A DNA stretch of 64,000 nt from an uncultured Candidatus Bathyarchaeia archaeon (GTDB lineage: Archaea; Thermoproteota; Bathyarchaeia; Bathyarchaeales; Bathyarchaeaceae): contig CAYNQS010000001.1 of assembly GCA_964399485.1 (NCBI GenBank), positions 64,797 to 128,796 on the forward strand, in the 5' to 3' direction. Made by a program: the position numbers and the translations under genes. Shown piece after piece: positions 3,108 to 62,483 of the stretch. A model generated the notes under the pieces. The model made no database searches. It was not told the DNA's origin and was given only the letters and a program-made list of their open reading frames with translations. Every line of letters begins with the position of its first letter. Positions within the stretch are counted from its first letter, which is position 1.

Positions 3108-3162
3108 CACAATCATATTTGAAGCCTAACAACAGCGCATTGTTGAAATGTACAAAAAATTT
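3108..3162 (-). repeat. Double-hairpin intergenic repeat (M1), copy A
   Basis: The reverse complement reads ACATTTCAACAATGCGCTGTTGTTAGGCTTCAAATATGATTGTG and aligns with the other M1 copies. Confidence 0.7.
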
Positions 3163-3219
3163 TAATGCTTAAGAATTGAACAAGTATAGATTAGTCAACT
3201 AAAAGAGAGGGTATAAGAA

Positions 3220-3999
3220 ATGAAGAAAGATTTGTTTGCTGCTTTTTCATTGCTCATGCTTTGCAGTCTACTGTTGATTACAACTGTTGGAACCGTCATG
3301 GCGGGCAACCAAGACTACTCAATCATAGAGTATTGGACTCAGGTAGCACCCACTTTTGATGGAGAATGGACTTCGCCAGATGAATGGACCGACGGTCAAC
3401 ATGTACAAATATCAGACGCTGGTATGTTCACATATACAGCGGACATAATGCTAACAGGTTCAATGAACTCCCAGTTCCTTGTCGAATTTTTCAGTGACAC
3501 CACCGACGATCCTGAAGACTACTGGCAAATTTGCCTTGACCCATCAGAAGGCGGTGGCTCTGCTCCTGGGACCGGTTATGGCAGAATAGACATTATCGGA
3601 CACACCGAGATAAAATGTTATGAAGGAGACGGAACAGGCTGGACCGAAATTTCGGTAGAATCAGACATAGAATGGGCAGACTCAATCACTGATACTCCGC
3701 TCAATAGCACTGCCCACTGGATTCTAGAATTACAATTTAACAAGGAATCAGGCGCCATGACACTCGCTCAGCCGCCAAATGGATTGAGAATTGCATTTTA
3801 TGATGCAAGCAATCCCGATGCGGGAGTTCAGGCGTGGCCACCAGGCAGTGACGTAGACGTTCCAGATACGTGGGGAGTAATCCCAACTTATTCAATGGAC
3901 CCGATACCAGAGAGCATTGGCTTCGGAGTTGCTGCGTTGCTATCGTCTATTGCGGTTGCTGTTAGCTTCTACTTTTTGCGGAAGCGACCAAAAACCTAA
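3220..3999 (+). CDS. Secreted CBM9/DOMON-like protein with C-terminal PEx-hydrophobic-basic anchor (paralog of 16036..16842)
   Basis: Signal peptide, PTFDGEWTSPDEWTD motif, and a C-terminus IPES + hydrophobic helix + RKRPKT resembling PEF/PGF-CTERM sorting signals. Confidence 0.75.
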   Translation: MKKDLFAAFSLLMLCSLLLITTVGTVMAGNQDYSIIEYWTQVAPTFDGEWTSPDEWTDGQHVQISDAGMFTYTADIMLTGSMNSQFLVEFFSDTTDDPEDYWQICLDPSEGGGSAPGTGYGRIDIIGHTEIKCYEGDGTGWTEISVESDIEWADSITDTPLNSTAHWILELQFNKESGAMTLAQPPNGLRIAFYDASNPDAGVQAWPPGSDVDVPDTWGVIPTYSMDPIPESIGFGVAALLSSIAVAVSFYFLRKRPKT

Positions 4000-4156
4000 A
4001 GTTACGGCTCAGGGAAAACGGGAGAAATAAGCTACACAACCTAAAACCTGCAAACACCAAACCTCCACCCTTTTTTTATGTTTTCCTGACACGGTTCCAT
4101 TTCAAAATTTGCCTTTTACTTGCGACTTTGCCCACCCCCTAAAAGAAAAACAGAAA

Positions 4157-4212
4157 TCATTCATATTAGGAGCCTAATAACAGAAGATTGTTAAAAACAG
4201 TCTTTTTTCCTG
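4157..4212 (-). repeat. M1 repeat, copy B
   Basis: The reverse complement reads CAGGAAAAAAGACTGTTTTTAACAATCTTCTGTTATTAGGCTCCTAATATGAATGA. Lies between the 3' ends of the 3220 gene and tRNA-Glu. Confidence 0.8.
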
Positions 4213-4233
4213 AAAACCAAGAAAGAATAAAAT

Positions 4234-4311
4234 TGGTGCTCCGGCCGGGATTCGAACCCGGGTCGGCGGCTCGAGAGGCCGTCATACTTAACCGGACTAT
4301 ACTACCGGAGC
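4234..4311 (-). tRNA. tRNA-Glu(CUC), CCA encoded
   Basis: Hand-folded cloverleaf: acceptor GCTCCGG/CCGGAGC, T-arm CCGGG-TTCGAAT-CCCGG, anticodon loop CTCTCGA, genomic CCA. Confidence 0.9.
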
Positions 4312-4340
4312 CTAAGTAATACTATTCATTTCCTTTTCCT

Positions 4341-4348
4341 GTATATAG
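4341..4348 (-). promoter_or_regulatory. Candidate TATA box for tRNA-Glu
   Basis: CTATATAC on the tRNA strand, about 30-37 nt upstream of tRNA position 1. Confidence 0.3.
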
Positions 4349-4475
4349 CCACTTCGTCCTGTTCACTGTACATGACGCACTCAAGCTACTTCCAACAGTT
4401 TATTTTCCTATTCCAGATTCAAAAATGCAGGTTTTTAATATGATTCCTAGAACAAAACGAATTTTCGGAAACTAA

Positions 4476-4503
4476 CCTGAAAAACTTGTTATTAGCTATC
4501 TCC
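4476..4503 (+). repeat. Degenerate or internally deleted M1-like copy
   Basis: CCTGAAAAACTTGTTATTAGCTATCTCC matches the M1 5' leader plus the first half of hairpin 2. Sits just past the stop of the 4525..5235 gene. Confidence 0.4.
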
Positions 4504-4524
4504 GTTTGCTGCCTATTGTATGTT

Positions 4525-5235
4525 TTATCTTAGTTTTGCGTTTGGAATTATCTTCTGTGCTGCAGCTAGAAACTTTTGCATTTCCTCGTCTGTAAAGGGT
4601 TTCAGTTTTATAAACTCCGGATTTATGGTTTCTTTGCCGAGGCTGACATCAAACTTCTGCAAAACATATTTTCTGCACCCCACCAAGCTGCGGCATATCT
4701 GCTCTATGCCCTCTTTTTCATGGAGCCTAGGAACAACAGTGGTCCTGAATTCGTAATCCATGCTGGAACCCAACAAGATTTCAACGCTTTCCTTCACGCT
4801 TTCCAGCAAGTTTTCTGCTTTGACACCGCTTGCCTTAGAGTATTTCTCCACAGTTAATGGCGCCTTTACGTCCATAGCTACGTAATCGATGAGACCATTC
4901 TTCATGAGTTTCTTCAGCATAGAAGGGCTGGTGCCGTTCGTATCCACTTTAACTAGGAAACCCATATTCTTTAATCGGGAGCATAGTTCCGGCAAGTCAC
5001 TGTGAAGGGTTGGTTCCCCACCTGTGATGCACACCCCGTCGGTCCAGCCTCTCTGCCTCTCAAGCTGATCTTCCACATATTCAAACGGGATTGTATCCAT
5101 CTTTTCAGGGTTAAAAACAAGATTCAAGTTGTGACAGAAGGGACAGCGAAAGTTACAGTTGGGAAGAAAAATAACAGATGAAATTTTTCCGTCCCAATCC
5201 ACGAAGCTAACATCGATGAATCCTTTTATCTCCAT
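4525..5235 (-). CDS. Radical SAM activating enzyme (anaerobic ribonucleotide reductase activase / PflA-like)
   Basis: CNFRCPFCHN cluster motif, ITGGEPT, VKVDTNG. Family-typical length of 236 aa. Confidence 0.85.
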   Translation of the reverse strand: MEIKGFIDVSFVDWDGKISSVIFLPNCNFRCPFCHNLNLVFNPEKMDTIPFEYVEDQLERQRGWTDGVCITGGEPTLHSDLPELCSRLKNMGFLVKVDTNGTSPSMLKKLMKNGLIDYVAMDVKAPLTVEKYSKASGVKAENLLESVKESVEILLGSSMDYEFRTTVVPRLHEKEGIEQICRSLVGCRKYVLQKFDVSLGKETINPEFIKLKPFTDEEMQKFLAAAQKIIPNAKLR

Positions 5236-5396
5236 TTCTCAAACACTTTCTAACTCTCTGAGTAAATGTGCCTAGCACCTTAAGTTCTTTTATGTCAAAT
5301 AAGCCAATGGAACCAGAAGCTCCAATAAAAAGGAAATCATTATTAAACCGCAACACCAAACCCCAGTATAAAACCAAGATTCTTGCAGGTGATTTT

Positions 5397-6269
5397 ATGC
5401 AAGCAGCAGCGGACACCAAAACTCATGTCATCGATGAACAGACAGTTCTCAGAAAAAGAATGAAGAAGATTAAGCATAAGATAGCGGTTATCAGCGGCAA
5501 GGGAGGAGTCGGCAAAACCGTTACCGCAGTCAACTTAGCCGTAGCTTTTGCCATGCAAGGACACGAAAACCGCGTTGGTCTCTTGGATGCTGACCTTCAT
5601 GGTCCCTGCGTTCCGAAGATGCTTGGCATGGAAGACGAAAAACTTAAGGTGGGACCGATAGGAGCTTTTCCAGCCTTAGGTCCTCTTGGAGTGAAGGTTG
5701 TTTCCATGGCGTTTGTGCTTGCAGGCAAGGAAGTTCCGGTTATATGGCGGGGACCCTTAAAAATGAGGGCAATCGAACAGTTCCTGTCTGAGATAGCTTG
5801 GGGCGAACTTGATTTTCTGCTTATAGATTTGCCTCCTGGAACCGGAGATGAACCATTGAGCGTCATGAAGCTTCTTCCAGAGATGGATGGCGTTGTTATA
5901 GTGACTATTCCCTCGGAGGTGTCCCAGAACGTGGTGGGAAAAGCCATCACATTCTCTAGGCAACTGAAGGTTCCGGTGATCGGGGTAGTTGAAAACATGA
6001 GTGGTTTCATCTGCCCCGAGTGCGGCGCCGAAACTCACATCTTCAAGACTGGAGGAGGCAAAAAAGTGTCTCAAGAATATTCTGTTCCCTTCTTGGGAAG
6101 CATACCTCTTGATCCCAGAATCTGCGAAGCCTCAGACTTGGGGCGCCCATTCATCATGGAATATCCTGATTCACCTGCCTCAAAAGCCTTCATGGAAATA
6201 GTGGAAAAAATCAAGACGTACATTCAAGAAAAAGAAAAACAGTCATCTAAGGAGACTGGCGACAAATAG
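5397..6269 (+). CDS. Mrp/NBP35 (ApbC) family Fe-S cluster carrier ATPase
   Basis: Deviant Walker A SGKGGVGKT, DLPPGTGD, CPECG motif. Start placed at the ATG preceded by AGGTGA; the ORF is open from 5268. Confidence 0.85.
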   Translation: MQAAADTKTHVIDEQTVLRKRMKKIKHKIAVISGKGGVGKTVTAVNLAVAFAMQGHENRVGLLDADLHGPCVPKMLGMEDEKLKVGPIGAFPALGPLGVKVVSMAFVLAGKEVPVIWRGPLKMRAIEQFLSEIAWGELDFLLIDLPPGTGDEPLSVMKLLPEMDGVVIVTIPSEVSQNVVGKAITFSRQLKVPVIGVVENMSGFICPECGAETHIFKTGGGKKVSQEYSVPFLGSIPLDPRICEASDLGRPFIMEYPDSPASKAFMEIVEKIKTYIQEKEKQSSKETGDK

Positions 6270-6288
6270 CCTCCAATTTTTCACATGC

Positions 6289-7146: not shown

Positions 7147-7272
7147 TTTGTTTTCTACCTTGCTTTTTAATTTTTGAGGGCGTATGCAGGTAATATTGTT
7201 CTTCGCTTCATAACTAAAGAGAGTTATGTTTAGAAAATAAACTGGCTAACAAAAAACTTGTGTGCACCCGTC

Positions 7273-11511: not shown

Positions 11512-11542
11512 CCAGAAAAACTTGCTGTTTGTGTTGTATCAC
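11512..11542 (+). repeat. Degenerate M1-like copy
   Basis: CCAGAAAAACTTGCTGTTTGTGTTGTATCAC shares the M1 leader and part of the hairpin region. Confidence 0.35.
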
Positions 11543-19484: not shown

Positions 19485-19667
19485 ATGGTAACTTTGAAGA
19501 AGCTGCGGGAGAAGATCGCGAAGCTGGAAAACGAGAAAACTAAGCTTCTGGAAGAGGTAAAGAAACTTAGGAAAGAAGCAGAGGAAAAAGCTGCCGCACT
19601 AGAATGTGAAGTGGCTGTGCTTCGAGAAGAAGCGGAATCGCTGAAAAAAATGCTTGATAGCTTCTAG
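19485..19667 (+). CDS. 60-aa coiled-coil protein (paralog of 2831..3013)
   Basis: Same length and collinear similarity to the 2831 ORF. Confidence 0.6.
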   Translation: MVTLKKLREKIAKLENEKTKLLEEVKKLRKEAEEKAAALECEVAVLREEAESLKKMLDSF

Positions 19668-20257: not shown

Positions 20258-21253
20258 TTAATCGAGCTCTTGGAGAGCCTTCAGCCTTTTAACAATGTTT
20301 GGGTGAGTGGAAAACACTTCCATAATCTTGTCAAAAGTAGTTACTTTTCTCCTCAGAACCGCTTCGACAAGTTTTCTGTCGCCCCCGACTCCCCCAAGCT
20401 GTCTTATGGCAGCTGCATCTGACTCTGCGCGATCCGGATCAGAGATGAAGAGTGCCTTAAACGAGTTGGAGCTAGTGTCCTGTCGGTCGCGGCGGCTTTG
20501 TTTTACTACGTTTGTATAGTTCACTATCTTTGCCAGTCCTTCAGAGAGTTTGCGGGGTCCATCCTCGACGATTGAGGCGCTGTGCCGGTCTGCGAAGTAT
20601 TCGCGTATTCGGCTCAGGTATAGGGTGAAGAGGGTGAGTATCCAGTAGATGAGGAGGCTTGCGATGCCGATGATTGCGGCTCCTCCGCTGTCTCTGCTGT
20701 CTCTACGGCTGAACATGGAGGAGAGGAGCATGGAGTAACCGATGAAATAGAAGATTGCTGGCAGTATGGAGACGAACATCATAACTTGGACGTCCCTGTG
20801 TTTTAGGTGACCCAGTTCGTGTCCTATTACGGCCTCAACTTCTTCGGTCTCAAGGGTTTCCAGAAGCCCGGTTGTTACTGCAACTTTGCTTCCTGTGAGT
20901 GGTGAACTATATGCGAAGGCGTTAGGTATTGCCATTTTGGCTTTCATGAGTTTCGGGGTTTTGATTCTGCTCTTCTTGCTGAGTCGCTCTACCATACTGT
21001 GCAACGCTGGGTCTTCTTGGGGCTTGACCTCTTTCACGTGGTACATTGCGTCTATTAGGTATGGGGCTATGAGCCACTGGATTATGTTGAAGATGACCAC
21101 TATGAAGGGCAAGAGCATGAGACTGACGCCAGCTAAAGCCATAATAACTGTGAAGAAAAGCGTGGATAATCCGATGATAAGTGCCAGAGTTCCTATCAGG
21201 GAAAATCGTAGTTTCCATAAACTCAAGAAATTGTCCTCAATAATGCTGAGCAA
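20258..21253 (-). CDS. htpX: HtpX-like M48 zinc metalloprotease
   Basis: HELGHLKHRD zinc motif, multiple TM helices, C-terminal THP motif. Confidence 0.85.
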   Translation of the reverse strand: MLSIIEDNFLSLWKLRFSLIGTLALIIGLSTLFFTVIMALAGVSLMLLPFIVVIFNIIQWLIAPYLIDAMYHVKEVKPQEDPALHSMVERLSKKSRIKTPKLMKAKMAIPNAFAYSSPLTGSKVAVTTGLLETLETEEVEAVIGHELGHLKHRDVQVMMFVSILPAIFYFIGYSMLLSSMFSRRDSRDSGGAAIIGIASLLIYWILTLFTLYLSRIREYFADRHSASIVEDGPRKLSEGLAKIVNYTNVVKQSRRDRQDTSSNSFKALFISDPDRAESDAAAIRQLGGVGGDRKLVEAVLRRKVTTFDKIMEVFSTHPNIVKRLKALQELD

Positions 21254-21480
21254 GAAAGGCGACTTATAACCATTTTGCTTTTTAACTTAAATGATTGCTG
21301 TTTGCAGGTTACCGTTCTCTGTTAAAGACCTCTGCGCCTCTATGTCCAAAATACGCAGAAGACTTAGCACATGCATATTTTAACAACCATTTGCATAGTA
21401 TTGATATGGCACTGCCTTCAAGTAGCATCTCTGTTTGTATTGAAGAGACGACTAATTAGCAGATGGAAAGGTAAAATGGC

Positions 21481-22914
21481 ATGGCTTCAAAACCTATTTC
21501 ATTTGAAGTAAAAGCTGAAATTGCTCCCGCTTTTTTCGACAACATGTTAAGATTCATTAATCGAAATTACATCCTCAAAAACAGAAAAAGTTTCACAAAC
21601 GTGAATTTGGCTGTGGGCGGAGATAATCAGCTTTCATTTACAGTTCTAGGTTCTGAAGGGGAGCCTGCCCTTGATGTAAAAATTGTGGCTAAGAAAACCA
21701 TTAGAGTAAAGATGGTTCCACTTGTGGAGGAGCTTTCTGAAGAATTCGTGGATCAGCTGAGGAATGATCTTCTACTCGGAATCCAGTTGTTCGAAGAAAA
21801 AGTGAGAAAGACTACGCTGTATTTTGCGTGGTTAGAGGGGGAAGAAGTTAAGCTAGAAAGAGTGATGGAGAATAAGAAAAGTATACTGGGAAAAATCTTC
21901 TCTAGCGGCATGTACATCTTTTTCGTAATTTCTATCGCTGTCAGCATTTTTCTCTTCTTACTGTTTGGACTTTATGCTGTAGTGATAATAATAGTCTTAC
22001 AATTTGTGCTTTTTTTGTTTTCAGACAAACTCATAGCTAAGGCTGGAGACTGGCAAGTAACCTCAAAAAATGCTAATGTTCATTTATTCCAATACCATCT
22101 TCCAGTTGAAGACTACCAAAAAATCAAACAAAGATTCAGTGACAAAGAATTTGCTGCAATGAAATCAGAAATATACAAAAGAACTCTGGCTGCTGGGGAA
22201 CCTTTGAACTGCAACGTGGTCCATGAAGTCTTTTCTAACTATGGAATTCGGTGTAATCCAGAAAACATGTTAACAAAGAAAGTGAATGTTTACCAAATAG
22301 TCAAAAAAGTAGCTGAAAAATTCGGTGTCCCAATCCCCAAGATAATTCTTGCAAACACCATAGTTCCCAACGCTGCGGCTTCTGGTCCCAGCCCCAGCAG
22401 AGGTGTCACCTTGATAACTACAGGTTTGCTGGTGCAGCTTGAAGAAGACGAAATCCTCAATGTAGTTGGTCACGAGTTCAGCCATCTGAAAAACAGAGAC
22501 CCGCTCATCCTGTTGGGGTTAACTTCGACTGAGTTTTTACTTCGAATCTACGTGCTCATTAATTTGTTCGCTTCCTTCTTTTGGTTCGGATACATCTACC
22601 TTTTCGCTTCCATCACTTCACTCTACTTTATAGCCAAATTTTTTGAAGGCAGAGCAGATTTAGATACTGCTGTTAAGATTGGACAACCTAAGATTCTTGC
22701 TGAAGCTCTAGAAAAAATCGGATTTAGAAGACTGCAATTTCAAGATATATCTGCTTACAGGATTCAAAGCTGGATAAGATGGGACCCTCACCCCCCAATA
22801 TATTTCAGGATTCACAGACTGGAAACGCTAGAGAAGCCTGAAGAAATTAAACACACCTTAATCCGGTCCATCAAAGATAACCTGCACGCGTTTGTGGATG
22901 CAATCCGAACCTAA
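21481..22914 (+). CDS. M48 family peptidase with large N-terminal domain
   Basis: GHEFSHLKNRD motif near residue 330. About 140 aa of unrecognised soluble N-terminal domain plus TM helices. Confidence 0.75.
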   Translation: MASKPISFEVKAEIAPAFFDNMLRFINRNYILKNRKSFTNVNLAVGGDNQLSFTVLGSEGEPALDVKIVAKKTIRVKMVPLVEELSEEFVDQLRNDLLLGIQLFEEKVRKTTLYFAWLEGEEVKLERVMENKKSILGKIFSSGMYIFFVISIAVSIFLFLLFGLYAVVIIIVLQFVLFLFSDKLIAKAGDWQVTSKNANVHLFQYHLPVEDYQKIKQRFSDKEFAAMKSEIYKRTLAAGEPLNCNVVHEVFSNYGIRCNPENMLTKKVNVYQIVKKVAEKFGVPIPKIILANTIVPNAAASGPSPSRGVTLITTGLLVQLEEDEILNVVGHEFSHLKNRDPLILLGLTSTEFLLRIYVLINLFASFFWFGYIYLFASITSLYFIAKFFEGRADLDTAVKIGQPKILAEALEKIGFRRLQFQDISAYRIQSWIRWDPHPPIYFRIHRLETLEKPEEIKHTLIRSIKDNLHAFVDAIRT

Positions 22915-22966
22915 TGTGCGTGCAGGAGGCTAAATTTTAGCCCCAAACCCAAACTATAAAACCTAT

Positions 22967-23011
22967 CCAAAAACTTGCTTTCAATAGTATTGCAGTATAC
23001 TAATGTGTGTG
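22967..23011 (+). repeat. M1 repeat, degenerate copy C
   Basis: CCAAAAACTTGCTTTCAATAGTATTGCAGTATACTAATGTGTGTG aligns with the M1 consensus with gaps. Confidence 0.45.
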
Positions 23012-23047
23012 AACTTTGGGTGCCAAGTTTTTGTTGTGTCTGGAATT

Positions 23048-23099
23048 CCTGAAAAACCTATTTTCAACAATGAACTACTATTAGTCTACTAATATGTGT
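23048..23099 (+). repeat. M1 repeat, copy D
   Basis: CCTGAAAAACCTATTTTCAACAATGAACTACTATTAGTCTACTAATATGTGT. Confidence 0.8.
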
Positions 23100-23221
23100 A
23101 AAGTTTGTGTGAATAAGTCAAGGTTTGATTTTATCTTGAGCTTGTGCTGCAACACGTTTATTAGACGTTAAATGTATATTGTGTATTAAGATTTAATTTC
23201 CTTTTCTGAGGGGGAAATACG

Positions 23222-23398
23222 ATGTCCAACGAGAATAAAAAAGAGGAACTGAAATCCCGGATAGAATTGCTGGAAAAAGAAATTCTTCACCTGAGGGGAA
23301 GAAAAAGAGCCGAAGCCAGAATGGAATATCTTAGGCTTTTGAAATCTTGTGGAAAAGAATGCGGATTAGAGGAACCAATCTACCTTAGGCGATGCTAG
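23222..23398 (+). CDS. Possible 58-aa coiled-coil protein (below the ORF-track cutoff)
   Basis: ATG preceded by GAGGGGGAAATACG. Translation is MSNENKKEELKSRIELLEKEILHLRGRKRAEARMEYLRLLKSCGKECGLEEPIYLRRC. Confidence 0.35.
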   Translation: MSNENKKEELKSRIELLEKEILHLRGRKRAEARMEYLRLLKSCGKECGLEEPIYLRRC

Positions 23399-25304: not shown

Positions 25305-25747
25305 ATGTCTGTTTAAGAAAATATTAATTGCACTAGACGGTTCCAAGGCAGCCAATAATGCACTAAACTTTGCACTCGGATTGGCAGAGACAACTTCAGC
25401 GGAGCTTGAACTACTTACGGTTTCCACCTGTCTTTTTGCCTTCACACTCAATCTGCAACAGCTTCTGATTTAATCACACAGATTGTGCTAAAGCATTGGC
25501 TGTTACTTTCAGGGGGGTGCTGTCTAAGGCGAAAAGAGAAGCTCGAAATAGAAAGCCTGAGCTTGAAGTTTCAACGAGATTTGAAAAGGGAGAGCCTGCT
25601 GAAAAAATTGTTGAGGTAGCGGAACGTGGTAACTTTGATCTTATTGTTATGGGAAGCAGAGGGTTAGGTGGCAGAGTTTCCACTCTGGGGAGTGTCAGCT
25701 CTAGGGTTGTAGATAACGCCTCCTGTCCCGTAGTGATAGTGAAATAA
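25305..25747 (+). pseudogene. Universal stress protein, frame-disrupted
   Basis: ATG at 25305 hits a stop after 3 codons. FKKILIALDGSKAANNALNFAL is in the +1 frame. The C-terminal USP part (DLIVMGSRGLGG...CPVVIVK) is in a third frame (ORF 25496..25747). Total length equals one USP. Confidence 0.6.
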
Positions 25748-25891
25748 GATTTTTCTGTCCTGAACGAAGCTTTGTTGCGGTTCGCAGGAAAGCTTGGGTC
25801 TTTAAATAGTGAATGCTCCAGATGTTGACAAGGTAGGATAAAACAAATGAGTAAGTTATGGTAACGTATTCTTGTGTGGAGGTTAGGGTTG

Positions 25892-26272
25892 ATGGGTGAA
25901 GAAAAGGTGAACATTCAAGAATTAGCCCGAAAAGTCGATGAACTTCTTAACGTCCTGAATGTGATCGCGGGGGACCTCTCTGAAGTTTCCAAGTCCCTCA
26001 AAGCGGTAAGCGAACCAGCCGCTACTCCTACAGTTTCTGCTGCACCATCTGGAAAAAAGCGTGGAGTCAACGATGTTAAGCAGGCGTTTTCTTCCGAACT
26101 TGCGGGTATGTTAATCTTTGAGGAGAGCGGAACCTTCATTATTGTGAAGCCACGGAGATTCTTAGGTTCCGACAATTTCGCTAGAATCGCATCTATTGTA
26201 CGCGACCTTGGTGGAGAATACATCAGTGCAGGAAGAAATTCTCATTTCAAGGTTCCGAAGGAAGTGGGTTAG
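25892..26272 (+). CDS. Hypothetical protein
   Basis: ATG 6 nt after GGAGGTTA; 126 aa. N-terminal helix, Ala/Pro/Ser linker, small C-terminal domain. No family recognised. Confidence 0.5.
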   Translation: MGEEKVNIQELARKVDELLNVLNVIAGDLSEVSKSLKAVSEPAATPTVSAAPSGKKRGVNDVKQAFSSELAGMLIFEESGTFIIVKPRRFLGSDNFARIASIVRDLGGEYISAGRNSHFKVPKEVG

Positions 26273-26325
26273 CAGGAAAAAGCTTGTTTTCAACATAGCT
26301 CTGTTATTAGTCTCCTAATATGCTC
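26273..26325 (+). repeat. M1 repeat, copy E
   Basis: CAGGAAAAAGCTTGTTTTCAACATAGCTCTGTTATTAGTCTCCTAATATGCTC, starting immediately after the stop codon at 26272. Confidence 0.8.
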
Positions 26326-26357
26326 TGGGATTTGGACAGCAAATCATATTCTTGCTT

Positions 26358-26423
26358 GGAAAAACAGAAAAAACACTGTTTTCAACAATGAAGTATTATT
26401 AGGCTTCAAATATGAATGTGTGG
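26358..26423 (+). repeat. M1 repeat, copy F
   Basis: GGAAAAACAGAAAAAACACTGTTTTCAACAATGAAGTATTATTAGGCTTCAAATATGAATGTGTGG. Lies 38 nt beyond the stop of rpl40e on the other strand. Confidence 0.8.
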
Positions 26424-26460
26424 TTAGCACCGTTTCGAGTGCAAACTGTTTTCGTGTGTT

Positions 26461-26613
26461 TTAGCGGATGATTTCGCGTTTCTTCCATCGCAGATTTTTG
26501 CTTCTGCATTTTCTGCATTTTGTGGCGCTGGAGGCGTTTCGTGCTCCGCATTCTCGGCAGATTTTCATGTAGAGTCTGTGCTTCTGGGCAAGCGTTTTCT
26601 TGAAGGGATCCAT
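26461..26613 (-). CDS. rpl40e: 50S ribosomal protein L40e (below the ORF-track cutoff)
   Basis: Translation is MDPFKKTLAQKHRLYMKICRECGARNASSATKCRKCRSKNLRWKKREIIR. The C-x2-C...C-x2-C ribbon and basic tail are typical of archaeal L40e. Confidence 0.85.
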   Translation of the reverse strand: MDPFKKTLAQKHRLYMKICRECGARNASSATKCRKCRSKNLRWKKREIIR

Positions 26614-26885
26614 TATTGGCAAGTCAGATGTTCTCCGTTAGCGAAGTTTAGTTACGATTCAAATCACCTCTGACCTAAATATGTTTTCCCTTTCCCTAAG
26701 GCTTCAACCGTCAGCCTCACCAATTTCCCTTGCTCTAGACAGTTATCGTCGTTCTTGGCATCATTATCGCCTGATGTTTCCTGTTTCTGGCGGAGCGATT
26801 CCCAAATCAAGTTGAACAGTAACATATGCAAAGATTCACCGCAACGTATTTATTGAGCAGACAAAAAGCAAAGTTCACTAAAAAA

Positions 26886-45187: not shown

Positions 45188-45286
45188 GGGCCCGTAGCTC
45201 AGCAAGGCAGAGCGGCGGACTGGTCCTGCGGGACTAGGTTGAGGCTCTTAACCCGTAGGTCAGGGGTTCAATTCCCCTCGGGCCCG
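45188..45286 (+). tRNA. tRNA, most likely Lys(CUU), with a 25-nt interruption in the anticodon arm; no encoded CCA
   Basis: Acceptor GGGCCCG/CGGGCCC, D-arm GCTC-AGCAAGGCA-GAGC, T-arm AGGGG-TTCAATT-CCCCT. Removing 45219..45243 gives stem GCGGG/CCCGT with loop CTCTTAA. Confidence 0.7.
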
Positions 45287-57036: not shown

Positions 57037-57046
57037 GGATGGAAAA

Positions 57047-58419: not shown

Positions 58420-59508
58420 ATGGTGAAGATTTTGAAGTCCAATGGACCCCTATTCATTCTGCCTTGGAGATGCACACAAGCCTGCACCAGCAGTTGTCTA
58501 CACTGCGGTTTCGCATCAAACCCCCCCGCCTCTGACGCCCTCGGAACCAAAGAAGTCATGCGTATCGTGGACGAAATCTACGATTTTGGGGCAACTTATC
58601 TAGGATTAAGCGGCGGAGAACCCCTTCTGCGAAAAGACCTACCAGAAATAATCGGCTACGCCAAAAACGTCGGCTTGAACGTGAGTCTCATAACCAACGG
58701 CTACCATGTTGACGGCAAAATCTTCGACAACCTAGTTAGACACGATGTTCGCGTCTCACTGAGTGTTGACGGAACAGAAGAAATCAACGATGCTATACGA
58801 GGAAAGGGCGCATACGAAAAAGCTGTTTCAGCCATGGAAAAAACTTCTAAAGCGGGGCTGCTGGACTGTCTTGTGGCAACCCTTGCCAATGTTGACGCAA
58901 CCCGCAATAACCTCACCTCCGAAGATATGGAGCACGTCATCCAACTGGCTGAAAGGTATGGCGCCCGGTGGGTGGTGATTCACGGCTTCATTCCCTTCAA
59001 CCGAACAAAAGAGCACCTCGCCAAGTCTCCATCCCCACAGCAGTACGAGAAGATTTGGAACCAAGTCTATGATTTGCGGCTGAAGTACTACGGAAAACCT
59101 GAAGTCAACGTTTATTGCCCCTTCTTCGCCCGCATCGCCAAGGAACGGGGCATGCCGGATCTCCATCACTGGTTCAACAACATTTTCCTTGGCAAGTGCT
59201 CCATCGCCGGCAAATACATGAGCGTAATCGAAAACGGAGACGTTATCCCCTGCAGCTTCAACGACCATATCCGACTTGGAAACGTTCAGGATAAGCCGCT
59301 GAAGCAAATCTGGGATGAACATCAAACCTCAGCACTTACTCGCAAGCTCAGGGATCGGAGTAACCTGAAAGGCAAATGTGGCGTCTGCGAGTACCGCGAA
59401 ATCTGTGGCGGATGTCGAACCAGAGCAGAGATGTACACTGGAGATATTTTCGCCTCTGACCCAGCATGCGGATACGTGCCTAAACTATTGCGTGAAAAAA
59501 CTGAATAA
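58420..59508 (+). CDS. Radical SAM/SPASM protein, NirJ/AhbC/AhbD-like (paralog 1)
   Basis: CTSSCLHC cluster motif, SGGEPLL, C-terminal GKCGVCEYREICGGCRTRAE SPASM motif. Confidence 0.85.
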   Translation: MVKILKSNGPLFILPWRCTQACTSSCLHCGFASNPPASDALGTKEVMRIVDEIYDFGATYLGLSGGEPLLRKDLPEIIGYAKNVGLNVSLITNGYHVDGKIFDNLVRHDVRVSLSVDGTEEINDAIRGKGAYEKAVSAMEKTSKAGLLDCLVATLANVDATRNNLTSEDMEHVIQLAERYGARWVVIHGFIPFNRTKEHLAKSPSPQQYEKIWNQVYDLRLKYYGKPEVNVYCPFFARIAKERGMPDLHHWFNNIFLGKCSIAGKYMSVIENGDVIPCSFNDHIRLGNVQDKPLKQIWDEHQTSALTRKLRDRSNLKGKCGVCEYREICGGCRTRAEMYTGDIFASDPACGYVPKLLREKTE

Positions 59509-59569
59509 CCATTCATCTAAATGCATCTGTTTCTTTCCTTATACTAAGTAAACATTGACTGAAAACACA

Positions 59570-59577
59570 TTATAATT
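59570..59577 (+). promoter_or_regulatory. Candidate TATA box for the left M2 element
   Basis: TTATAATT 30 nt upstream of the conserved block, preceded by the A-rich AAAACAC. Confidence 0.3.
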
Positions 59578-59599
59578 CACGTTCATACCTAATTTTTTA

Positions 59600-59661
59600 G
59601 TCAAGAAAATTTGACTAACGTATGGTGTGGTTGGTCAAGAATCCTTTACAAAAATCCTTTT
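59600..59661 (+). ncRNA. M2 element, left copy (candidate leader RNA, small RNA or operator)
   Basis: 62 nt, 57/62 identical to the reverse complement of 62532..62593. Contains GTCAA-N6-TTGAC and TTGACTAA-N12-TTGGTCAA. Confidence 0.35.
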
Positions 59662-59702
59662 ATTACCTACTCTCCACGTAATCAATTGTTGGAGCTCCTA
59701 AC

Positions 59703-59837
59703 ATGAAAAAGACCGCATTAAGATTCGTTATGTTGCTACATTCTACTAGAAAAATCAATCTCACAAAAGCGGCACCTAAGACCATAGTTGCTCCTGCGCT
59801 CACGCAAAAAAGCAACGACTGGATAGCACGCGGCTAA
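59703..59837 (+). CDS. Possible 44-aa ORF upstream of radical SAM paralog 2
   Basis: ATG after GGAGCTCCTAAC. Translation is MKKTALRFVMLLHSTRKINLTKAAPKTIVAPALTQKSNDWIARG. No other support. Confidence 0.2.
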   Translation: MKKTALRFVMLLHSTRKINLTKAAPKTIVAPALTQKSNDWIARG

Positions 59838-59909
59838 CACAGTGGGACTCCAACACTCTAACCCCTACTAACATAATAAGGGAGTAATGTAAAGGAGTGC
59901 GAACAAACC

Positions 59910-60959
59910 GTGAATAGAAGACCTCTCCTGTATATGATGACTTGGAGATGTACGAGAGCTTGTAACTATAACTGTTTGCACTGCAGTTTCGGTTCCAGCC
60001 CTGCCGCCATTAACGAGATCGACACCAAAGGTGGAATGCGCATAGTTGATGAACTTTATGAGATGGGGGCAAAGTGGTTTGGGCTGAGCGGCGGAGAACC
60101 TCTTCTGCGGAAGGACATTTTTGAGATCATTAAGCATGCGAAGAGTCTGGGCATGAATGTGAGCCTCATAACCAACGGCTACTATGTTAAGGGGGATATT
60201 CTCGACAACCTAATCCGAAACGAGGTTATGACCGCGGTAAGTCTTGATGGAAGAGAGGAGTCGCACGATTTTATACGCGGCAAAGGCGCCTATGCAACAG
60301 CTCTTCTGGCTATGGAGAATTTGTCTGAGGGCGGAATTTTTGATTGCGTCGTAAGTACACTGAATAAGCGTAACTGCTCGGAGGTGGATCATGTAGCCCA
60401 GGTGGCGCATGAGTATGATGCTACTCGTGTGGTTTATCACAATTACATTCCTGTTGGCAGAGCTGAGGAGCATCTGGAGTTGGCTCCCACCCCACAGCAG
60501 TATGAGACGGTTTTGAATAGAATTTACGATTTGATGCAGGAGTATAGAGGAAAACTCGGCGTCAACGTTTATTGTCCCTTCTTCGCTCGCATCGCCAAGG
60601 AAAGGGGTATGCCCGACTTTGATTACTGGTTCAACAATGTGTTTCTTGGGCAGTGCTTTATTGGCGGCAGATATATTGGTCTGCTGGAAAATGGTGACAT
60701 GCGACCCTGTGGCTTTAATGAGGGTTACCGTATGGGCAACATTAAGAACAAGTTGATGAAGGAGATTTGGGCTGACATGCAGACATCAGAGTTCACTCGT
60801 AAGCTCAGGGATCGGAGTAACCTGAAGGGCAAATGTGGCGTCTGCGAATACCGCGAAATCTGTGGCGGATGCCGAACCAGAGCAGAAATCTACACTGGCG
60901 ACCTCTTCCAGTCTGACCCAGCATGCGGATACGTGCCTAAACTATTGCGCGAAAAATAG
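59910..60959 (+). CDS. Radical SAM/SPASM protein, NirJ/AhbC/AhbD-like (paralog 2)
   Basis: CNYNCLHC, SGGEPLL and the same C-terminal SPASM motif as paralog 1. GTG start after AAGGAGTG. Confidence 0.85.
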   Translation: MNRRPLLYMMTWRCTRACNYNCLHCSFGSSPAAINEIDTKGGMRIVDELYEMGAKWFGLSGGEPLLRKDIFEIIKHAKSLGMNVSLITNGYYVKGDILDNLIRNEVMTAVSLDGREESHDFIRGKGAYATALLAMENLSEGGIFDCVVSTLNKRNCSEVDHVAQVAHEYDATRVVYHNYIPVGRAEEHLELAPTPQQYETVLNRIYDLMQEYRGKLGVNVYCPFFARIAKERGMPDFDYWFNNVFLGQCFIGGRYIGLLENGDMRPCGFNEGYRMGNIKNKLMKEIWADMQTSEFTRKLRDRSNLKGKCGVCEYREICGGCRTRAEIYTGDLFQSDPACGYVPKLLREK

Positions 60960-60972
60960 GGCGACAACAAAG

Positions 60973-62268
60973 TTATTTGTTTTCTGCGAATTCCCACGCG
61001 ATGTTGGCTTTCCAGAGGTCTCCAAGTTCGGTTATTTTGATTTCTTTTTCGTTTATTTCGATTAGTCCCTTTTCTTTCAGTCTTTTCAGTTGTTCAGGGT
61101 ACACTTCTTCGGGGAGCTTTCCGAACCTTTCCTTGAATTCCAGTTTATCTACGGGTAGGCGCAGGTAGAGTTTTGTCATCACCTTTCTCATCATGTCTTC
61201 GTCTGTAGATTTCGAGAGTTTTGCGATCGGAAATCTTCCTTCCTGAACAGTTGCAACGTAGTCGTTCGCCAGCTCGATGTTGGAGTAAGAAAATCTCTGA
61301 AGATATCCCATGAAGCATCCTGCTCCTGTCGTTAGGATGCCTGCCCAAGGCCATCCGTTTAGGCAGTTCTCTTTGGCGTGCCATTCTACTCTGGAGTAGC
61401 GGTCGTGACCAATCGGCTTGTAGCCCGCCTCCGTGAACAGTTCGTATGCTGCAACATACATTTTCTTCTCCAGTTCCGGGTCTGCTTGGGGCGGCACCTT
61501 CCCAGCTTGCATCTGTTTATACAAGACCGTTTCAGGGTAAACTTCAAGGCAGTATGCGTCAACTTCCGCATCTAATTCGATTGCCGTCTTCACAGTGTCG
61601 ATCCAGCTTTCCAGTGTTTGTCCTGGAATGCTGTACATTATGTCTATGCAGACGCAGAGTCCAAGTTTTCTGGCGAGTCTGACTTCCTCTTTTACGTGTT
61701 CTGCGCTGTCCGGCAGATTCAGCATCCTTCGGAGTTTGTCGTCGAAGGTTTGGGCTCCCATGTCCACTTGGAAGACGCCGTATTCTGCGGCTGCAACTAG
61801 CTTCTCTTTGGAGAAGCTTCTGGATGAGCCCGTGATTTTGATGAAGTAGTCGTCTACTGTGTTGAAGTTTTGTTCGCAGAATTTTATCAGATCAAACATC
61901 TGGTCTTTGGTCATGAGGCTTGGTGTTCCTCCGCCCAGAACTATTTCGTCGAATTCGCTGGTTTTGACATACTTTGTTTCAGCGTACATCATCAGCTCTT
62001 TCTTTAAAGCCTTGAGATATGGTTCCATCTTGGCGCTGGAGTAAGGGTTGTTTGGGTAGTAGCAGAAGGTGCATCTGGAGTCGCAGAAGGATATCCACGG
62101 CTGGAGCTCCATCACCTTGTTTGACGTGTTCTCGGTTGCCAGGAACCCCATGAATTCCTTGTATGTTTCAGGTGCGATGTCCGGATAATCTCGGTATGTG
62201 TAAGGCGGCCAGCTCTCTCTTGAACTGTATGTGTTCTCTTTCTCTGCTTCGGGGATAGCTGATTTCAT
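60973..62268 (-). CDS. HemN-family radical SAM protein (HemN/HemW/ChuW-like)
   Basis: CDSRCTFC cluster motif, LGGGTPS, C-terminal HemN_C-like winged-helix tail; 431 aa. Confidence 0.85.
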   Translation of the reverse strand: MKSAIPEAEKENTYSSRESWPPYTYRDYPDIAPETYKEFMGFLATENTSNKVMELQPWISFCDSRCTFCYYPNNPYSSAKMEPYLKALKKELMMYAETKYVKTSEFDEIVLGGGTPSLMTKDQMFDLIKFCEQNFNTVDDYFIKITGSSRSFSKEKLVAAAEYGVFQVDMGAQTFDDKLRRMLNLPDSAEHVKEEVRLARKLGLCVCIDIMYSIPGQTLESWIDTVKTAIELDAEVDAYCLEVYPETVLYKQMQAGKVPPQADPELEKKMYVAAYELFTEAGYKPIGHDRYSRVEWHAKENCLNGWPWAGILTTGAGCFMGYLQRFSYSNIELANDYVATVQEGRFPIAKLSKSTDEDMMRKVMTKLYLRLPVDKLEFKERFGKLPEEVYPEQLKRLKEKGLIEINEKEIKITELGDLWKANIAWEFAENK

Positions 62269-62424
62269 TTCGAATTTCCCCAGATTGCCGTTTTATAGAA
62301 TATTTGGGAATAATATAAACTTGCGTTTTTCATTGTTATTGCCAGAATGTTCGGGTTATTTGGCGTTTGCAAGCTTATATTCGGTGCCAGAAGAGAAAAA
62401 CTGTTTTTGTTGTTGCCTGTTTTT

Positions 62425-62483
62425 CCAGAAAAAATATTGTTTTCAACAATCAACTGTTATTAGTCTCCTAATATGAATGATTT
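62425..62483 (+). repeat. M1 repeat, copy G
   Basis: CCAGAAAAAATATTGTTTTCAACAATCAACTGTTATTAGTCTCCTAATATGAATGATTT. Confidence 0.8.

Follow-up and report, generated by a model that had tools for sequence, protein, structure and literature searches.

A dispersed intergenic repeat of fixed-register sequence blocks in a sub-clade of Bathyarchaeia and a lineage of head-tailed viruses

Copies of M1 and their distribution

The window, a 64,000-nucleotide stretch of a Bathyarchaeia contig, contains six clear copies of a non-coding repeat, M1, about 50-70 bases long and scattered between genes (Table 1). The pattern TTTNAACAN6TNNTNTTAGNCTNCNAATATG matches the window six times, against none expected from 100 dinucleotide shuffles. 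The pattern and a repeat finder together recovered all six copies at the places claimed in the initial annotation, and all six lie between genes, as claimed. The earlier consensus also matches the logo from 112 copies. A search of the window with a profile HMM made from 112 copies detects these six alone, even at E<=10, and thereby none of four degenerate copies proposed earlier. Two of these (22967-23011 and 4476-4503) look deleted or decayed by eye only, the first region also being delimited with the help of alignment A5; the other two (11512-11542 and 59681-59707) are without support.

Table 1. Coordinates of M1 copies in the window and of the parts of copy 6
Feature	Position	Strand	Pattern match	Description
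Copy 1	3106-3169	-	3114-3148	blocks B and C intact; HMM matches model positions 40-83 only
Copy 2	4157-4229	-	4162-4196	HMM score 58.1
Possible remnant	4476-4503	+		CCTGAAAAACTTGTTATTAGCTATCTCC; beside stop of gene 4525-5235 (-); by eye only, weak; no HMM match
Decayed tandem copy before copy 3	22960-23016	+		CCAAAAAC..TTTCAATAG..TATT..CTAATG..GTGTGAAC; no HMM detection
Copy 3	23030-23116	+	23062-23096	HMM score 45.2; downstream of M48 peptidase gene 21481-22914
Copy 4	26264-26328	+	26288-26322	HMM score 56.9
Copy 5	26345-26422	+	26380-26414	HMM score 54.5; AAAAAC leader variant
Copy 6	62407-62480	+	62441-62475	most complete; HMM score 61.8, E=2e-18
Copy 6 leader	62407-62427	+		element -34..-14; T/G-rich TTGTTGTTGCCTGTTTTTCCA; supplies forward T run
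Copy 6 block A	62428-62434	+		-13..-7; GAAAAAA; complementary strand is the oligo-T tract
Copy 6 spacer V1	62435-62438	+		-6..-3; free to vary
Copy 6 block B	62439-62450	+		-2..+9; TGTTTTCAACAAT
Copy 6 spacer V2	62451-62457	+		+10..+16; hypervariable
Copy 6 block C	62458-62475	+		+17..+34; TATTAG-TCTC-CTAATATG

Copy 1, in which block A is replaced by A6T4 (3154-3163), is convergent with a 60-aa ORF (2831-3013); its orthologue lies beside the same small ORF in L003, L047, L058 and L086, with a different gene on the other side each time. Copy 2 shares its strand with tRNA-Glu (4234-4311, -), which it follows at a distance of 12-22 nt, and is convergent with gene 3220-3999. L022, L060 and L089 also have an M1 copy in this position behind tRNA-Glu; in L002 it has decayed. 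Copy 3 belongs to a long subfamily whose leader (..TGTGTCTGGAATTCC) and trailer (N10-GTGTGAATAA) both recur at non-orthologous sites (L001, L048, L065, L095, L105, L002, L140). Copy 4 has no leader: its block A begins at 26273, the first base past the stop codon of ORF 25874-26272, and the copy has an orthologue in eight relatives (L128, L131, L135, L136, L140, L144, L145, L166). Copy 5 follows in tandem with a 92-nt period, its 3' end 40 nt from the stop of rpl40e (26461-26622, -). Copy 6 is located between the divergent genes 60973-62268 (-) and 62684-63769 (+), with no gene 3' end adjacent.

More than 112 M1 stretches were collected from species-representative assemblies; among the matches listed, the repeat is present in 26 such assemblies, 24 of them labelled Bathyarchaeia. 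Relatives with RTC at most 70% identical yield no M1 matches in 134 kb, versus 13 in 155 kb of closer relatives. M1 appears to belong to one sub-clade of Bathyarchaeia and to a lineage of head-tailed viruses. Its density is one copy per 11 kb in the window and, among the matches listed, roughly one per 50-150 kb on long contigs, which leaves the per-genome number uncertain. Several M1 sites are conserved across species, a pattern that fits fixed functional sites as well as old insertions.

Block anatomy and sequence constraint

M1 is a fixed-register array of three sequence-constrained blocks, near-invariant in the logo, and two free spacers, V1 and V2, with a core of 48 bp. The consensus is C(A/T)GAAAAAA for block A, TGTTTTCAACAAT for block B and TATTAG-N4-C(T/A)AATATG for block C; it has no terminal inverted repeats. 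Positions -11..-7 are A in 98-105 of the 112 copies of the logo, and an A run of at least five is present in 105/119 copies. Read on the complementary strand, a run of at least five T stands just past the two dyads in 88% of copies; the forward strand carries at least five T in 44% and at least four in 74%. The leader is weakly conserved (0.1-0.6 bit per position in the logo), and beyond the copies the downstream sequence is rich in G and T and often shows T runs at a distance of 20-40 nt. In a divergent lineage (L006, L007, L029, L034), blocks B and C are retained and a C-rich block takes the place of the A/T run. Spacer V2 is hypervariable, with 39 distinct 7-mers among the copies, and takes a few recurrent states (..CCTC, ..CTGT, ..GTAT). 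Between the window and L107, 4-5 of its 7-9 bases differ, while the flanks are 91% identical.

The same anatomy is seen in eleven related head-tailed viral contigs, each of which bears one M1 copy, always in the position immediately preceding the terminase gene; we infer that these viruses infect Bathyarchaeia. When the 11 collinear viral contigs and L094 are compared, block A is 96% identical, block B 95% and block C 100% (18 columns); third codon positions reach 68.5% and the non-coding leader alongside 79%. Identity falls to 42-43% in the spacers (V1 42%, V2 43%), below the synonymous level. One V1-B-V2 variant is common to L117, L122, the distant L118 and 17 host copies, and differs from that of L114, a closer viral contig; the variants recur out of step with the relatedness of the viruses.

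The two hairpins recognised in the initial annotation correspond to a TGTT-TTC-AACA dyad in block B, whose 5' arm varies without compensation, and to the 6+6 dyad of block C, whose arms are invariant in sequence and whose loop varies freely among copies recovered independently of the pattern. Both are short and A/T-rich, and their predicted stability is no better than that of shuffled sequence: the consensus has a minimum free energy of -6 to -7 kcal/mol (z = +0.4 to +0.5, either strand). Across 129 copies the 12 pairs show no compensatory change and no stem pair has more than one Watson-Crick type; dyad-2 pair 21:28 is a broken A.A in 33% of copies. There is no Watson-Crick covariation in M1, only linkage of adjacent columns, and no V1-V2 complementarity (p=0.3-0.5). 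A C.A mismatch in dyad 1 would be G.U on the complementary strand, where 43% of copies have the complete helix, as opposed to 3% for the forward strand; this faintly suggests single-strand folding. Purifying selection on the blocks acts on their primary sequence and not on base-pairing, and M1 appears to be conserved as a recognised sequence, not as a folded RNA terminator.

Position relative to genes and the terminator and promoter readings

Intergenic location is near-universal (117/120 copies), and the orientation classes number 29/23/22/15. The median distance of copies is 40-60 nt from gene 3' ends and 107-148 nt from 5' ends, so that they lie nearer to the former. Where a copy follows the 3' end of a gene, its orientation relative to that gene is unbiased, with 29 forward and 22 reverse. 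Fifteen copies lie between divergent starts, and M1 occupies 10.6% of divergent versus 10.5% of co-directional regions. Of the downstream neighbours, 50 are co-oriented and 51 opposed; 21/51 convergent genes end within 20 nt of a copy, and the first T5 run after the stop codon is the M1 tract in 37/44 convergent neighbours. Most copies had been placed past a gene 3' end, so that the transcript would read hairpin, hairpin, oligo-U. This description suits rpl40e and the 60-aa ORF. It does not suit gene 3220-3999, behind which a separate T7 run (4071-4077) comes 85 nt ahead of the copy, nor the copies at 23048 and 26273, opposite in orientation to the upstream gene, nor that at 4157, likewise opposite to tRNA-Glu, nor that at 62425, between two divergent gene starts.

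A structured terminator or 3'-UTR module, in which the complementary-strand RNA forms two hairpins and oligo-U and the sequence is needed for termination or 3'-end stability, is improbable in view of these data. The prevalence of the complementary-strand T run and its place as the first T5 met by most close convergent genes speak for it, as do filled convergent gaps that leave no room for another terminator (13 nt each side in L032; 32 and 2 nt in L043), the place of the viral copy, in terminator orientation, behind the stop codon of an 84-aa gene, and the G.U-dependent completeness of dyad 1. It is opposed by the poor folding scores, the broken and uncompensated pairs, the unbiased orientation, the filling of divergent regions at the background rate and the separate T7 run of gene 3220; moreover, the T/A leader variant is unrelated to context and a related lineage lacks any T/A run. 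Of the terminator idea, the oligo-T survives; of the initial annotation as a whole, the family, its consensus and its intergenic location stand, but the data speak against a conserved structured module before the T-tract. The alternatives that it also offered, a site bound by a protein or a miniature mobile element, fit the evidence better. It is less probable still that M1 is a portable promoter or small transcription unit, with TATTAG of block C as a TATA box driving a short or antisense RNA or the downstream gene, and we regard this as very unlikely. The intergenic repeats of halovirus HF2 do carry promoters (PMC8707807), TTTATTAG-type boxes stand at promoter distance before tRNA-Gln and precede the small ORF 23222-23398 in all relatives, and the G/T-rich sequence past M1 with its T runs would suit a short transcript unit. 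Yet downstream neighbours are evenly co-oriented and opposed, many convergent genes end close to M1, the downstream rSAM gene (window versus L002) keeps its own conserved promoter with or without M1, as does ORF 23222-23398, and a start on the other strand would run directly into the T6 tract.

Spread, rearrangement and likely nature of the repeat

Tandem pairs of M1 occur in at least 10 loci, including L107, L166, L019, L039, L082, L098, L104 and L005. The roughly 125-nt subfamily unit appears at non-orthologous sites, and between RTC and o75 only in L140 and L172. A comparison of presence and absence in relatives, as proposed earlier, finds M1 copies in L002, L038 and L111 at places that are empty in the window. 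To the right of the copy that follows ORF 25874-26272 stand at least eight different neighbours, with junctions at the A/V1 boundary, and rearrangement junctions in relatives fall at the 3' edge of block A. M1 copies coincide with synteny breaks, and block indels end at them, examples being the M48 gene with its elements (21314-23153) and the hot spot that follows ORF 25874-26272; A-run microhomology can explain the junctions, as in L125 versus L126. The tandem pairs, non-orthologous subfamilies, presence/absence differences, recurrent spacers and junctions show that M1 copies are multiplied and reshuffled. Of the mobile-element hallmarks suggested earlier, terminal inverted repeats are missing, and no empty/filled pair is close enough to define the ends of M1 or a target-site duplication. 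No binding protein, transposase or recombinase was identified, and the neighbours of M1 include no recurrent mobility gene; no longer element with split M1 halves was found in 1.18 Mb.

Movement as single-stranded DNA by an HUH/Y1 transposase, in the style of REP-RAYT or IS200/IS605 with the dyads as hairpins, would allow insertion without terminal inverted repeats, which the consensus lacks, and without target duplication. Conserved stems with a free loop and no covariation are compatible with it, and so are the clusters and tandem pairs, the fixed junction point at the A/V1 boundary and a preponderance of co-oriented neighbours more than 500 nt apart (about 13 versus 5 in our own tally). This is nevertheless unlikely: the two dyads differ, while a single hairpin is common to IS200/IS605 ends and to REP doublets; the stems, of 4-6 bp, contain only A and T and are very weak; inverted, REPIN-like doublets are almost absent (only L092); no Y1 transposase is found among M1 neighbours; and CP070820.1, with only 8 copies, shows no obvious replichore pattern in orientation. 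We consider a recombination site of the att or dif kind, with a recombinase on blocks B and C, exchange in or near the spacers and a role as entry point for virus or mobile DNA, to be more doubtful again. Spacers that turn over faster than synonymous sites between invariant blocks, synteny breaks and indels ending at M1, and possession of the same element by host and virus all point this way, as does a weak inverted symmetry, AACAAT-N8-ATTAGT, around V2. That symmetry, however, extends to only 4/6 of the arm positions, no integrase is found on the viral fragments or next to the viral copy, 12/12 viral contigs have an uninterrupted arrangement with no provirus junction at M1, and the junctions could arise equally from A-run microhomology or homologous recombination between repeats.

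Our preferred reading, which we hold tentatively, is that M1 may be a small non-coding dispersed DNA repeat, an archaeal counterpart of the bacterial REP/ERIC/BOX-type elements, read by a sequence-specific factor and endowed with an oligo-T able to stop transcription. A trans-acting factor, most probably a DNA-binding protein that reads the two dyads, would recognise the blocks, and the virus would keep its M1 site because that host factor serves it too. Recombination or gene conversion between copies, possibly also a transposase, might spread and homogenise the repeat. With oligo-T on the complementary strand, and often on the forward strand too, M1 could stop RNA polymerase from either side, which would explain its tolerance, and perhaps its use, near gene 3' ends.

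ERIC and BOX elements of bacteria are non-coding intergenic repeats, highly conserved in sequence across species but at differing loci, randomly oriented, modular and without a transposase of their own. M1 resembles ERIC (IRU) and BOX in consisting of short intergenic units of tens to about 130 bp at differing locations, likewise highly conserved in sequence, randomly oriented, modular and without its own transposase. It differs in its archaeal host, in having three blocks and two free spacers instead of one long imperfect palindrome, in being shared with a virus at a fixed site and in its oligo-T tract. MITEs such as Correia and those of Sulfolobus are also small and non-autonomous, with insertion polymorphism and subfamilies, and can carry terminators or promoters; M1, in contrast, has no terminal inverted repeats or demonstrable target-site duplication, and no parent IS in 1.18 Mb. 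Like archaeal oligo-T terminators, M1 has a T run of 5-7 read by convergent genes, often as the first past the stop, but such terminators need no 48-nt conserved sequence, and M1 is unbiased, occurs between divergent starts and is without the run in a related lineage. REP, BIME and REPIN elements with RAYT (PMC2817692, PMC3116915) share with M1 an extragenic, multi-copy, often clustered and long-persisting presence near gene 3' ends, and an association with protein binding, mRNA ends and genome rearrangement. REPs, however, are single G+C-rich stable palindromes, usually in inverted doublets, whereas M1 combines two weak, dissimilar A/T dyads and mostly stands in direct tandems; pairing does not explain it, and no RAYT was found. 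Archaeal REP-like palindromes were surveyed with RepRanger, in a text that makes no mention of Bathyarchaeia (PMC12306157). The 58-bp and 29-bp classes of promoter-carrying repeats in HF2 (PMC8707807) are, like M1, conserved A/T-rich intergenic units of an archaeal head-tailed virus at gene-block boundaries. They are multi-copy in the virus and promoter-oriented, while M1 has one copy in the virus, many in the host chromosome and no orientation towards genes.

Copies, anatomy and distribution of M1

M1, a dispersed intergenic repeat of about 50-70 nt, is a real family spread far beyond the window. A degenerate pattern derived from the six copies that the initial annotation had listed as clear matches the window six times, exactly at the claimed places, with no match expected from 100 dinucleotide-preserving shuffles of the window. 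The same family is recovered by a repeat finder, and a profile HMM built from 112 copies finds only these six in the window (E 2e-18 to 9e-11). The four further copies that had been called degenerate have no HMM match in the window even at E<=10. On visual inspection 22967-23011 proves to be a decayed tandem copy and 4476-4503 possibly a copy with an internal deletion; neither 11512-11542 nor 59681-59707 is convincing. The content of the window is archaeal housekeeping DNA, including tRNA-Glu, rpl40e, Alba, RNA 3'-phosphate cyclase (RTC) and radical-SAM enzymes. A replication origin at the point where the window copies switch orientation (-,-,+,+,+,+) was rejected, with no Cdc6/Orc1 family among the 25 listed of 62 matched Pfam families (38 window genes). 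Eight copies on the CP070820.1 chromosome, among the matches listed, show no orientation pattern.

In a logo of 112 copies, numbered from the first T of TTTCAACA, M1 resolves into three sequence-constrained blocks (A, B and C) and two free spacers (V1 and V2). The register is fixed, 129 of 138 profile-found copies being free of indels. The leader variant AAAAAC replaces TTTTTC in about a fifth of the copies. Block C puts stop codons in all frames of both strands.

Positions of M1 copies and of the second repeat family, and layout of the M1 element in its own numbering
Feature	Position	Strand	Description	Basis
M1 copy 1	3114-3148	-		pattern match
M1 copy 2	4162-4196	-		pattern match
M1 copy 3	23062-23096	+		pattern match
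M1 copy 4	26288-26322	+		pattern match
M1 copy 5	26380-26414	+		pattern match
M1 copy 6	62441-62475	+		pattern match
M1 leader	-34..-14		weak, T/G-rich	logo
M1 block A	-15..-7		C(A/T)GAAAAAA	logo
M1 spacer V1	-6..-3			logo
M1 block B	-2..+9		TGTTTTCAACAAT	logo
M1 spacer V2	+10..+16		sole conserved base C at +13	logo
M1 block C	+17..+34		TATTAG-N4-C(T/A)AATATG	logo
M1 trailer	after block C		faint A(T)TG, then G/T-rich without conservation	logo
Second repeat family	window 59597-59662	-		
Second repeat family	window 62531-62596	+		
Second repeat family	L113 9237-9302; L114 8925-8991; L117 2927-2993; about 9 host loci			

A scan of species-representative genomes with a pattern of 20 specified bases returned, among the matches listed, more than 112 M1 stretches from 26 assemblies, 24 of which carry Bathyarchaeia, Bathyarchaeota or Bathyarchaeum labels. 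The remaining two are labelled Saccharibacteria (L009, CAYQWZ010000012.1) and Alphaproteobacteria (L089, DATKTE010000044.1); because both hold typical M1 copies, and L089 additionally a conserved Bathyarchaeia tRNA-Glu flank, these contigs are probably mis-binned Bathyarchaeia DNA. Two further pattern matches, in Ureaplasma and Rasiella, lie inside genes and were set aside as chance. Fifty-one metagenome loci were fetched via the RNA-cyclase gene, and the sample is therefore independent of M1 presence. By HMM, these loci hold 13 M1 copies in 155 kb of relatives with at least 75% RNA-cyclase protein identity, and none in 134 kb of relatives at 70% or less. A divergent group (L006, L007, L029 and L034) keeps blocks B and C and has CCTACCCCCTCTAT in place of the A-rich block. 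The core is common to the 24 Bathyarchaeia-labelled assemblies, among the matches listed, and the flanks are mostly non-orthologous. M1 thus resembles ERIC and BOX elements in a sequence kept across species, in differing locations, in confinement to intergenic DNA (117 of 120 copies) and in occurrence in either orientation. Two identical copies stand back-to-back at the contig end of L109 (1-150), probably an assembly artefact in the form of a palindromic contig terminus. Exact matches to window proteins, sought for strain-level comparison, comprise one contig for one protein and none for four.

Viral copies, spacer turnover and rearrangement

The M1 pattern also matches 11 IMG/VR contigs, collinear relatives with 74-92% nucleotide identity, each of which bears exactly one copy at an identical site. 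In each, M1 comes directly after the stop codon of a gene for an 84-aa membrane protein. A small ORF and the large terminase are downstream of it, and capsid, HK97-gp10-like and tail-tube genes are farther upstream; a locus in a Bathyarchaeia bin (L094) is the twelfth copy of this arrangement. Pairwise identity in the viral alignment is 68.5% at third codon positions of the flanking gene and 79% in the adjacent non-coding leader, against 96% in block A, 95% in block B and 100% in block C, whose 18 columns take in the loop and the CAAATA variant. It follows that purifying selection acts on the blocks in this compact viral genome. Head-tailed viruses of Bathyarchaeia are already known from a paper in which intergenic elements go unmentioned (PMC10848311). 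The collinear head-tailed lineage described here (L113-L123 and L094) carries one copy each of M1 and of the second repeat family, and also encodes a NosD/beta-helix protein and an ABC-type ATPase; the repeats it shares with the host point to a Bathyarchaeia host.

Spacers V1 and V2 are only 42% and 43% identical among the viral copies and change faster than synonymous sites. The recurrent states of V2 are few (..CCTC, ..CTGT/C and ..GTAT). The variant TACTGT-B-GTACCTC is common to L117, L122, the most distant virus L118 and 17 host copies, and the closer viral contig L114 has a different V1-B-V2 variant. Orthologous host copies show the same behaviour: the window and L107 are 91% identical around a tandem M1 pair, in which 4-5 of 7-9 spacer positions differ. 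We infer that spacer turnover reflects exchange rather than random mutation, in which copies of a common pool would recombine or undergo gene conversion over short tracts, with transfers between virus and host among these events.

Host copies are duplicated, lost and displaced. Tandem pairs or triplets with a period of 92-101 nt occur at at least 10 loci, and a long subfamily (about 125 nt), distinguished by a leader of its own and a trailer of the form N10-GTGTGAATAA, occupies non-orthologous sites in 8 loci. A long-subfamily copy between RTC and the neighbouring ORF o75 is found in L140 and L172 only; in the window this subfamily flanks the o58-o75 gene pair on its other side and is reversed in orientation. 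The insertion polymorphism for which the initial annotation had suggested looking in relatives is thus present, and it recurs in L002, L038 and L111, which have copies at sites empty in the window, and in L170 and L174, which have the M48 peptidase gene with no M1 copy between ORF o58 and that gene and none after it. The terminal inverted repeats of a MITE, raised in the same place, are absent: neither consensus end (TTGCTTGGTTTTTC... and ...CTAATATGATTG) is the reverse complement of the other, and the terminal similarity of the long subfamily is direct, not inverted. The closest pairs of empty and filled sites are 77-85% identical, with intergenic DNA too diverged to align for a target-site duplication. 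A search of the window and of 1.18 Mb of loci, a small sample relative to whole genomes, turned up neither an autonomous parent element nor split M1 halves. Sites kept across species include those after tRNA-Glu, beside the 60-aa ORF 2831-3013, after ORF 25874-26272 and upstream of 62684-63769.

The block 21314-23153, which comprises the M48 gene (21481-22914) and M1 copies, is missing from the closest relatives (L125, L128, L129, L131, L173 and others). In relatives without this block the orthologue of 20258-21253 directly follows ORF o58, and the M48 gene persists in diverged or partial form in the more distant L170, L174 and L167. A rearrangement hot spot begins immediately past ORF 25874-26272: to the left of the M1 copy after this ORF, all relatives are conserved and keep the order o132-o146-o104-RTC-o75-o58 in full synteny, and to its right stand at least eight different sequences (window 26273-26460 and orthologous sites in L125-L166). 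L126 retains only CAGGAAAAAG of M1 after the orthologous ORF, and L128 retains copy 1 of the tandem plus the leader and CAGAAAAAACA of copy 2, which places both junctions at the A/V1 boundary. Comparison of L125 with L126 indicates that A-run microhomology alone can make junctions of this type. In some relatives the orthologue of window ORF 25474-25914(-) is split by about 0.95 kb of inserted DNA (L126 2959-3905, L132, L166).

Folding, gene context and alternative readings

The initial annotation had described M1 as a conserved double-hairpin module formed by dyad 1 (ATTGTT-TTC-AACAAT) and dyad 2 (TATTAG-N4-CTAATA, in block C), which folding scores, pair counts and mutual information do not bear out. 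The consensus folds with a minimum free energy of -6.2 kcal/mol forward and -7.0 kcal/mol reverse, no better than shuffles (z = +0.52 and +0.41); in the best window copies z falls to -2.3 to -2.5, through copy-specific extra pairing only, and the viral copy folds worse than shuffles (z = +1.2 to +2.1). Across 12 pairs in 129 indel-free copies there are zero compensatory changes, each pair having one Watson-Crick type throughout. Within dyad 2, 43 of the 129 (33%) have A.A at pair 21:28, and the 5' arm of dyad 1 varies freely without compensation opposite a fixed 3' arm (TTTCAACAAT). Copies recovered independently of the pattern have a free loop in dyad 2 (GAAA, GGGT, TATT, GAGT and others) between constant arms, TATTAG/CTAATA. 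Mutual information is confined to adjacent columns, the signature of subfamilies, with no distant signal. V1 and V2 show no signal of complementarity (p=0.3-0.5), and their interpretation as direct repeats, resembling a duplication around block B, was dropped as not significant (p about 0.08). With Rfam 15, nothing other than tRNAs attains the gathering score across the window and seven loci, and M1 has no matching family; sub-threshold matches over two M1 copies are at chance level (best E>=1). One hint for a particular strand, the complementary one, comes from dyad 1: the frequent C.A at -4:+8 is G.U on that strand, so that dyad 1 forms a full 6-bp helix there in 43% of copies vs 3% forward.

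Gene context, from gene calls by codon-usage score and tRNA prediction, bears on the proposal that M1 is a dedicated structured terminator. The upstream and downstream genes both share the strand of M1 for 29 copies and both oppose it for 22; 23 copies lie between convergent genes (same, then opposite) and 15 between divergent genes (opposite, then same). The orientation bias at gene 3' ends implied by the proposal is not seen: in co-directional regions M1 runs forward relative to the upstream gene 29 times and in the orientation of the initial annotation 22 times, and it occupies 10.6% of divergent regions vs 10.5% of co-directional ones (15.5% of convergent ones). M1 lies at a median of 40-60 nt from gene 3' ends, closer than the 107-148 nt that separate it from 5' ends. 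Minus the element, the regions that hold it have lengths between the plain and the length-weighted background, as roughly random placement avoiding promoters would give; an extra hidden unit in these regions is therefore not needed and was rejected. What stands of the terminator proposal is the T run on the transcribed strand: a complementary-strand T run of at least 5 accompanies 88% of copies (an A run of at least 5 at -13..-5, 105/119), and 44% have a forward-strand T run of at least 5. Significant stems, compensatory pairing, sense orientation and absence from 5'-5' regions do not stand, and the specific claim of the structured-terminator interpretation lacks support. As a whole we consider it unlikely; what remains of it is an oligo-T tract that could stop transcription. 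This tract is the first T5 past the stop codon in 37 of 44 close convergent genes, which equals the background expectation for such short gaps, and gene 3220-3999 of the window has its own T7 at 4071-4077, ahead of the M1 copy. An adaptation of the T-run and A-run leader variants to gene context was also considered; the association is absent.

Mobilisation by an HUH transposase, with M1 as the hairpin element, is similarly doubtful. The comparison with REP/REPIN-RAYT systems, built on short imperfect palindromes, is mixed in that M1 is extragenic and multi-copy but combines two different weak dyads with non-palindromic blocks. Its clusters are direct tandems, with a lone head-to-head case in L092. 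A partner gene sought among 360 M1-neighbour proteins did not emerge: no cluster is annotated as a mobility gene, only a few flanking genes having been Pfam-scanned, and the two largest clusters, of 8 proteins each and named from their sequences, are small Lrp/AsnC-type ligand-binding-domain-like proteins and secreted beta-helix proteins. The clustering of rearrangement junctions at M1 would suit a recombination site, such as the att/dif/lox-type core site of a tyrosine recombinase, a reading that we rate as quite improbable. Neither an integrase nor an att site was found on the viral fragments, no provirus junction falls at the element, and the inverted match around V2 is just 4/6. Least credible is a promoter or small-RNA unit, the former on the model of the promoter-bearing intergenic repeats of HF2. 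Boxes of the TTTATTAG type are likely TATA boxes in this clade and block C resembles them on both strands, but the downstream gene is co-oriented with M1 in 50 cases vs 51 opposed, many copies abut convergent stop codons, and where this can be examined, in two cases, the downstream gene retains a promoter of its own whether M1 is there or not. A CRISPR array was rejected, M1 clusters having at most three units that vary at V1 and V2 and the copies being dispersed. Readings as a C/D-box or H/ACA RNA, a CRISPR repeat or a small ORF were set aside, since the sequence has no box motifs, no array structure and no open frames.

A dispersed repeat possibly recognised by a protein

We tentatively regard M1, at somewhat under an even chance, as a REP/ERIC/BOX-like dispersed repeat. 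Its three blocks would be read as sequence, most plausibly by a DNA-binding protein; recombination would have multiplied and homogenised the copies, and a virus of the same hosts would retain the element under selection. That the 48-bp core is the recognition site of a Bathyarchaeia factor needed by both the chromosome and a head-tailed virus is a more specific and rather improbable proposition, for which the candidates would be a sequence-specific protein that stops transcription or insulates (giving archaeal genomes a factor-dependent 'punctuation') or one that acts in recombination or packaging. If it held, the spacer exchange would be the trace of continuing exchange of DNA between virus and host at a site of 50 bp, and with M1 this uncultured class would have its first described system of sequence-specific dispersed cis-elements; a literature search found no description of such an element in Bathyarchaeia.

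Small dispersed repeats such as REP, ERIC and BOX are classic in bacteria and poorly documented in archaea, and Bathyarchaeia are a globally abundant, barely cultivated class. Since two bacteria-labelled assemblies carry it, M1 can readily serve as a marker in binning and in virus-host assignment, and it flags rearrangement hot spots in otherwise syntenic genomes. It also illustrates cleanly how strong purifying selection can act on a non-coding element in both host and virus, the spacers being swapped faster than synonymous change accrues. Archaeal termination, insulation and recombination are poorly understood beyond the oligo-T rule; a protein that reads M1 would offer a handle on these processes, and the element would gain in interest if the recognising factor governed termination or recombination.

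Several minor features accompany M1. Proteins of 75-104 aa that resemble, from their sequences, stand-alone Lrp/AsnC-type ligand-binding (RAM) domains occur in L002, L021, L064, L066, L076, L096, L107 and L111, on either side of the element and in either orientation. The TTTATTAG(A/G) box at 23159-23168, likely a TATA-box variant of this clade, is kept upstream of ORF 23222-23398 in all relatives and is also found upstream of tRNA-Gln (L066, L111). ORFs 2831-3013(+) and 19485-19667(+) are paralogous 60-aa coiled-coil ORFs, 71% identical in DNA, the former with an M1 copy at its 3' end in every one of five genomes; ORF 23222-23398 is likewise small, charged and helical-looking. A 99-nt Rfam tRNA match (52 bits) at 45188-45286(+), not reported by ARAGORN, is presumably an intron-containing archaeal tRNA gene.

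The second dispersed repeat, AAAAGGGTTTTTGTAAAGGATTCTTGACCAACCACACCATAGTTTAGTCAAGTTTTTTTGAC, is about 66 nt long and consists of a 6-bp stem with an 18-nt loop followed by T7. Its two window copies are 91% complementary, and it recurs in other Bathyarchaeia loci and in the same M1-bearing viral contigs. In four cases (the window, L081, L018 and L020) an M1 copy is no more than about 150 nt away from it.
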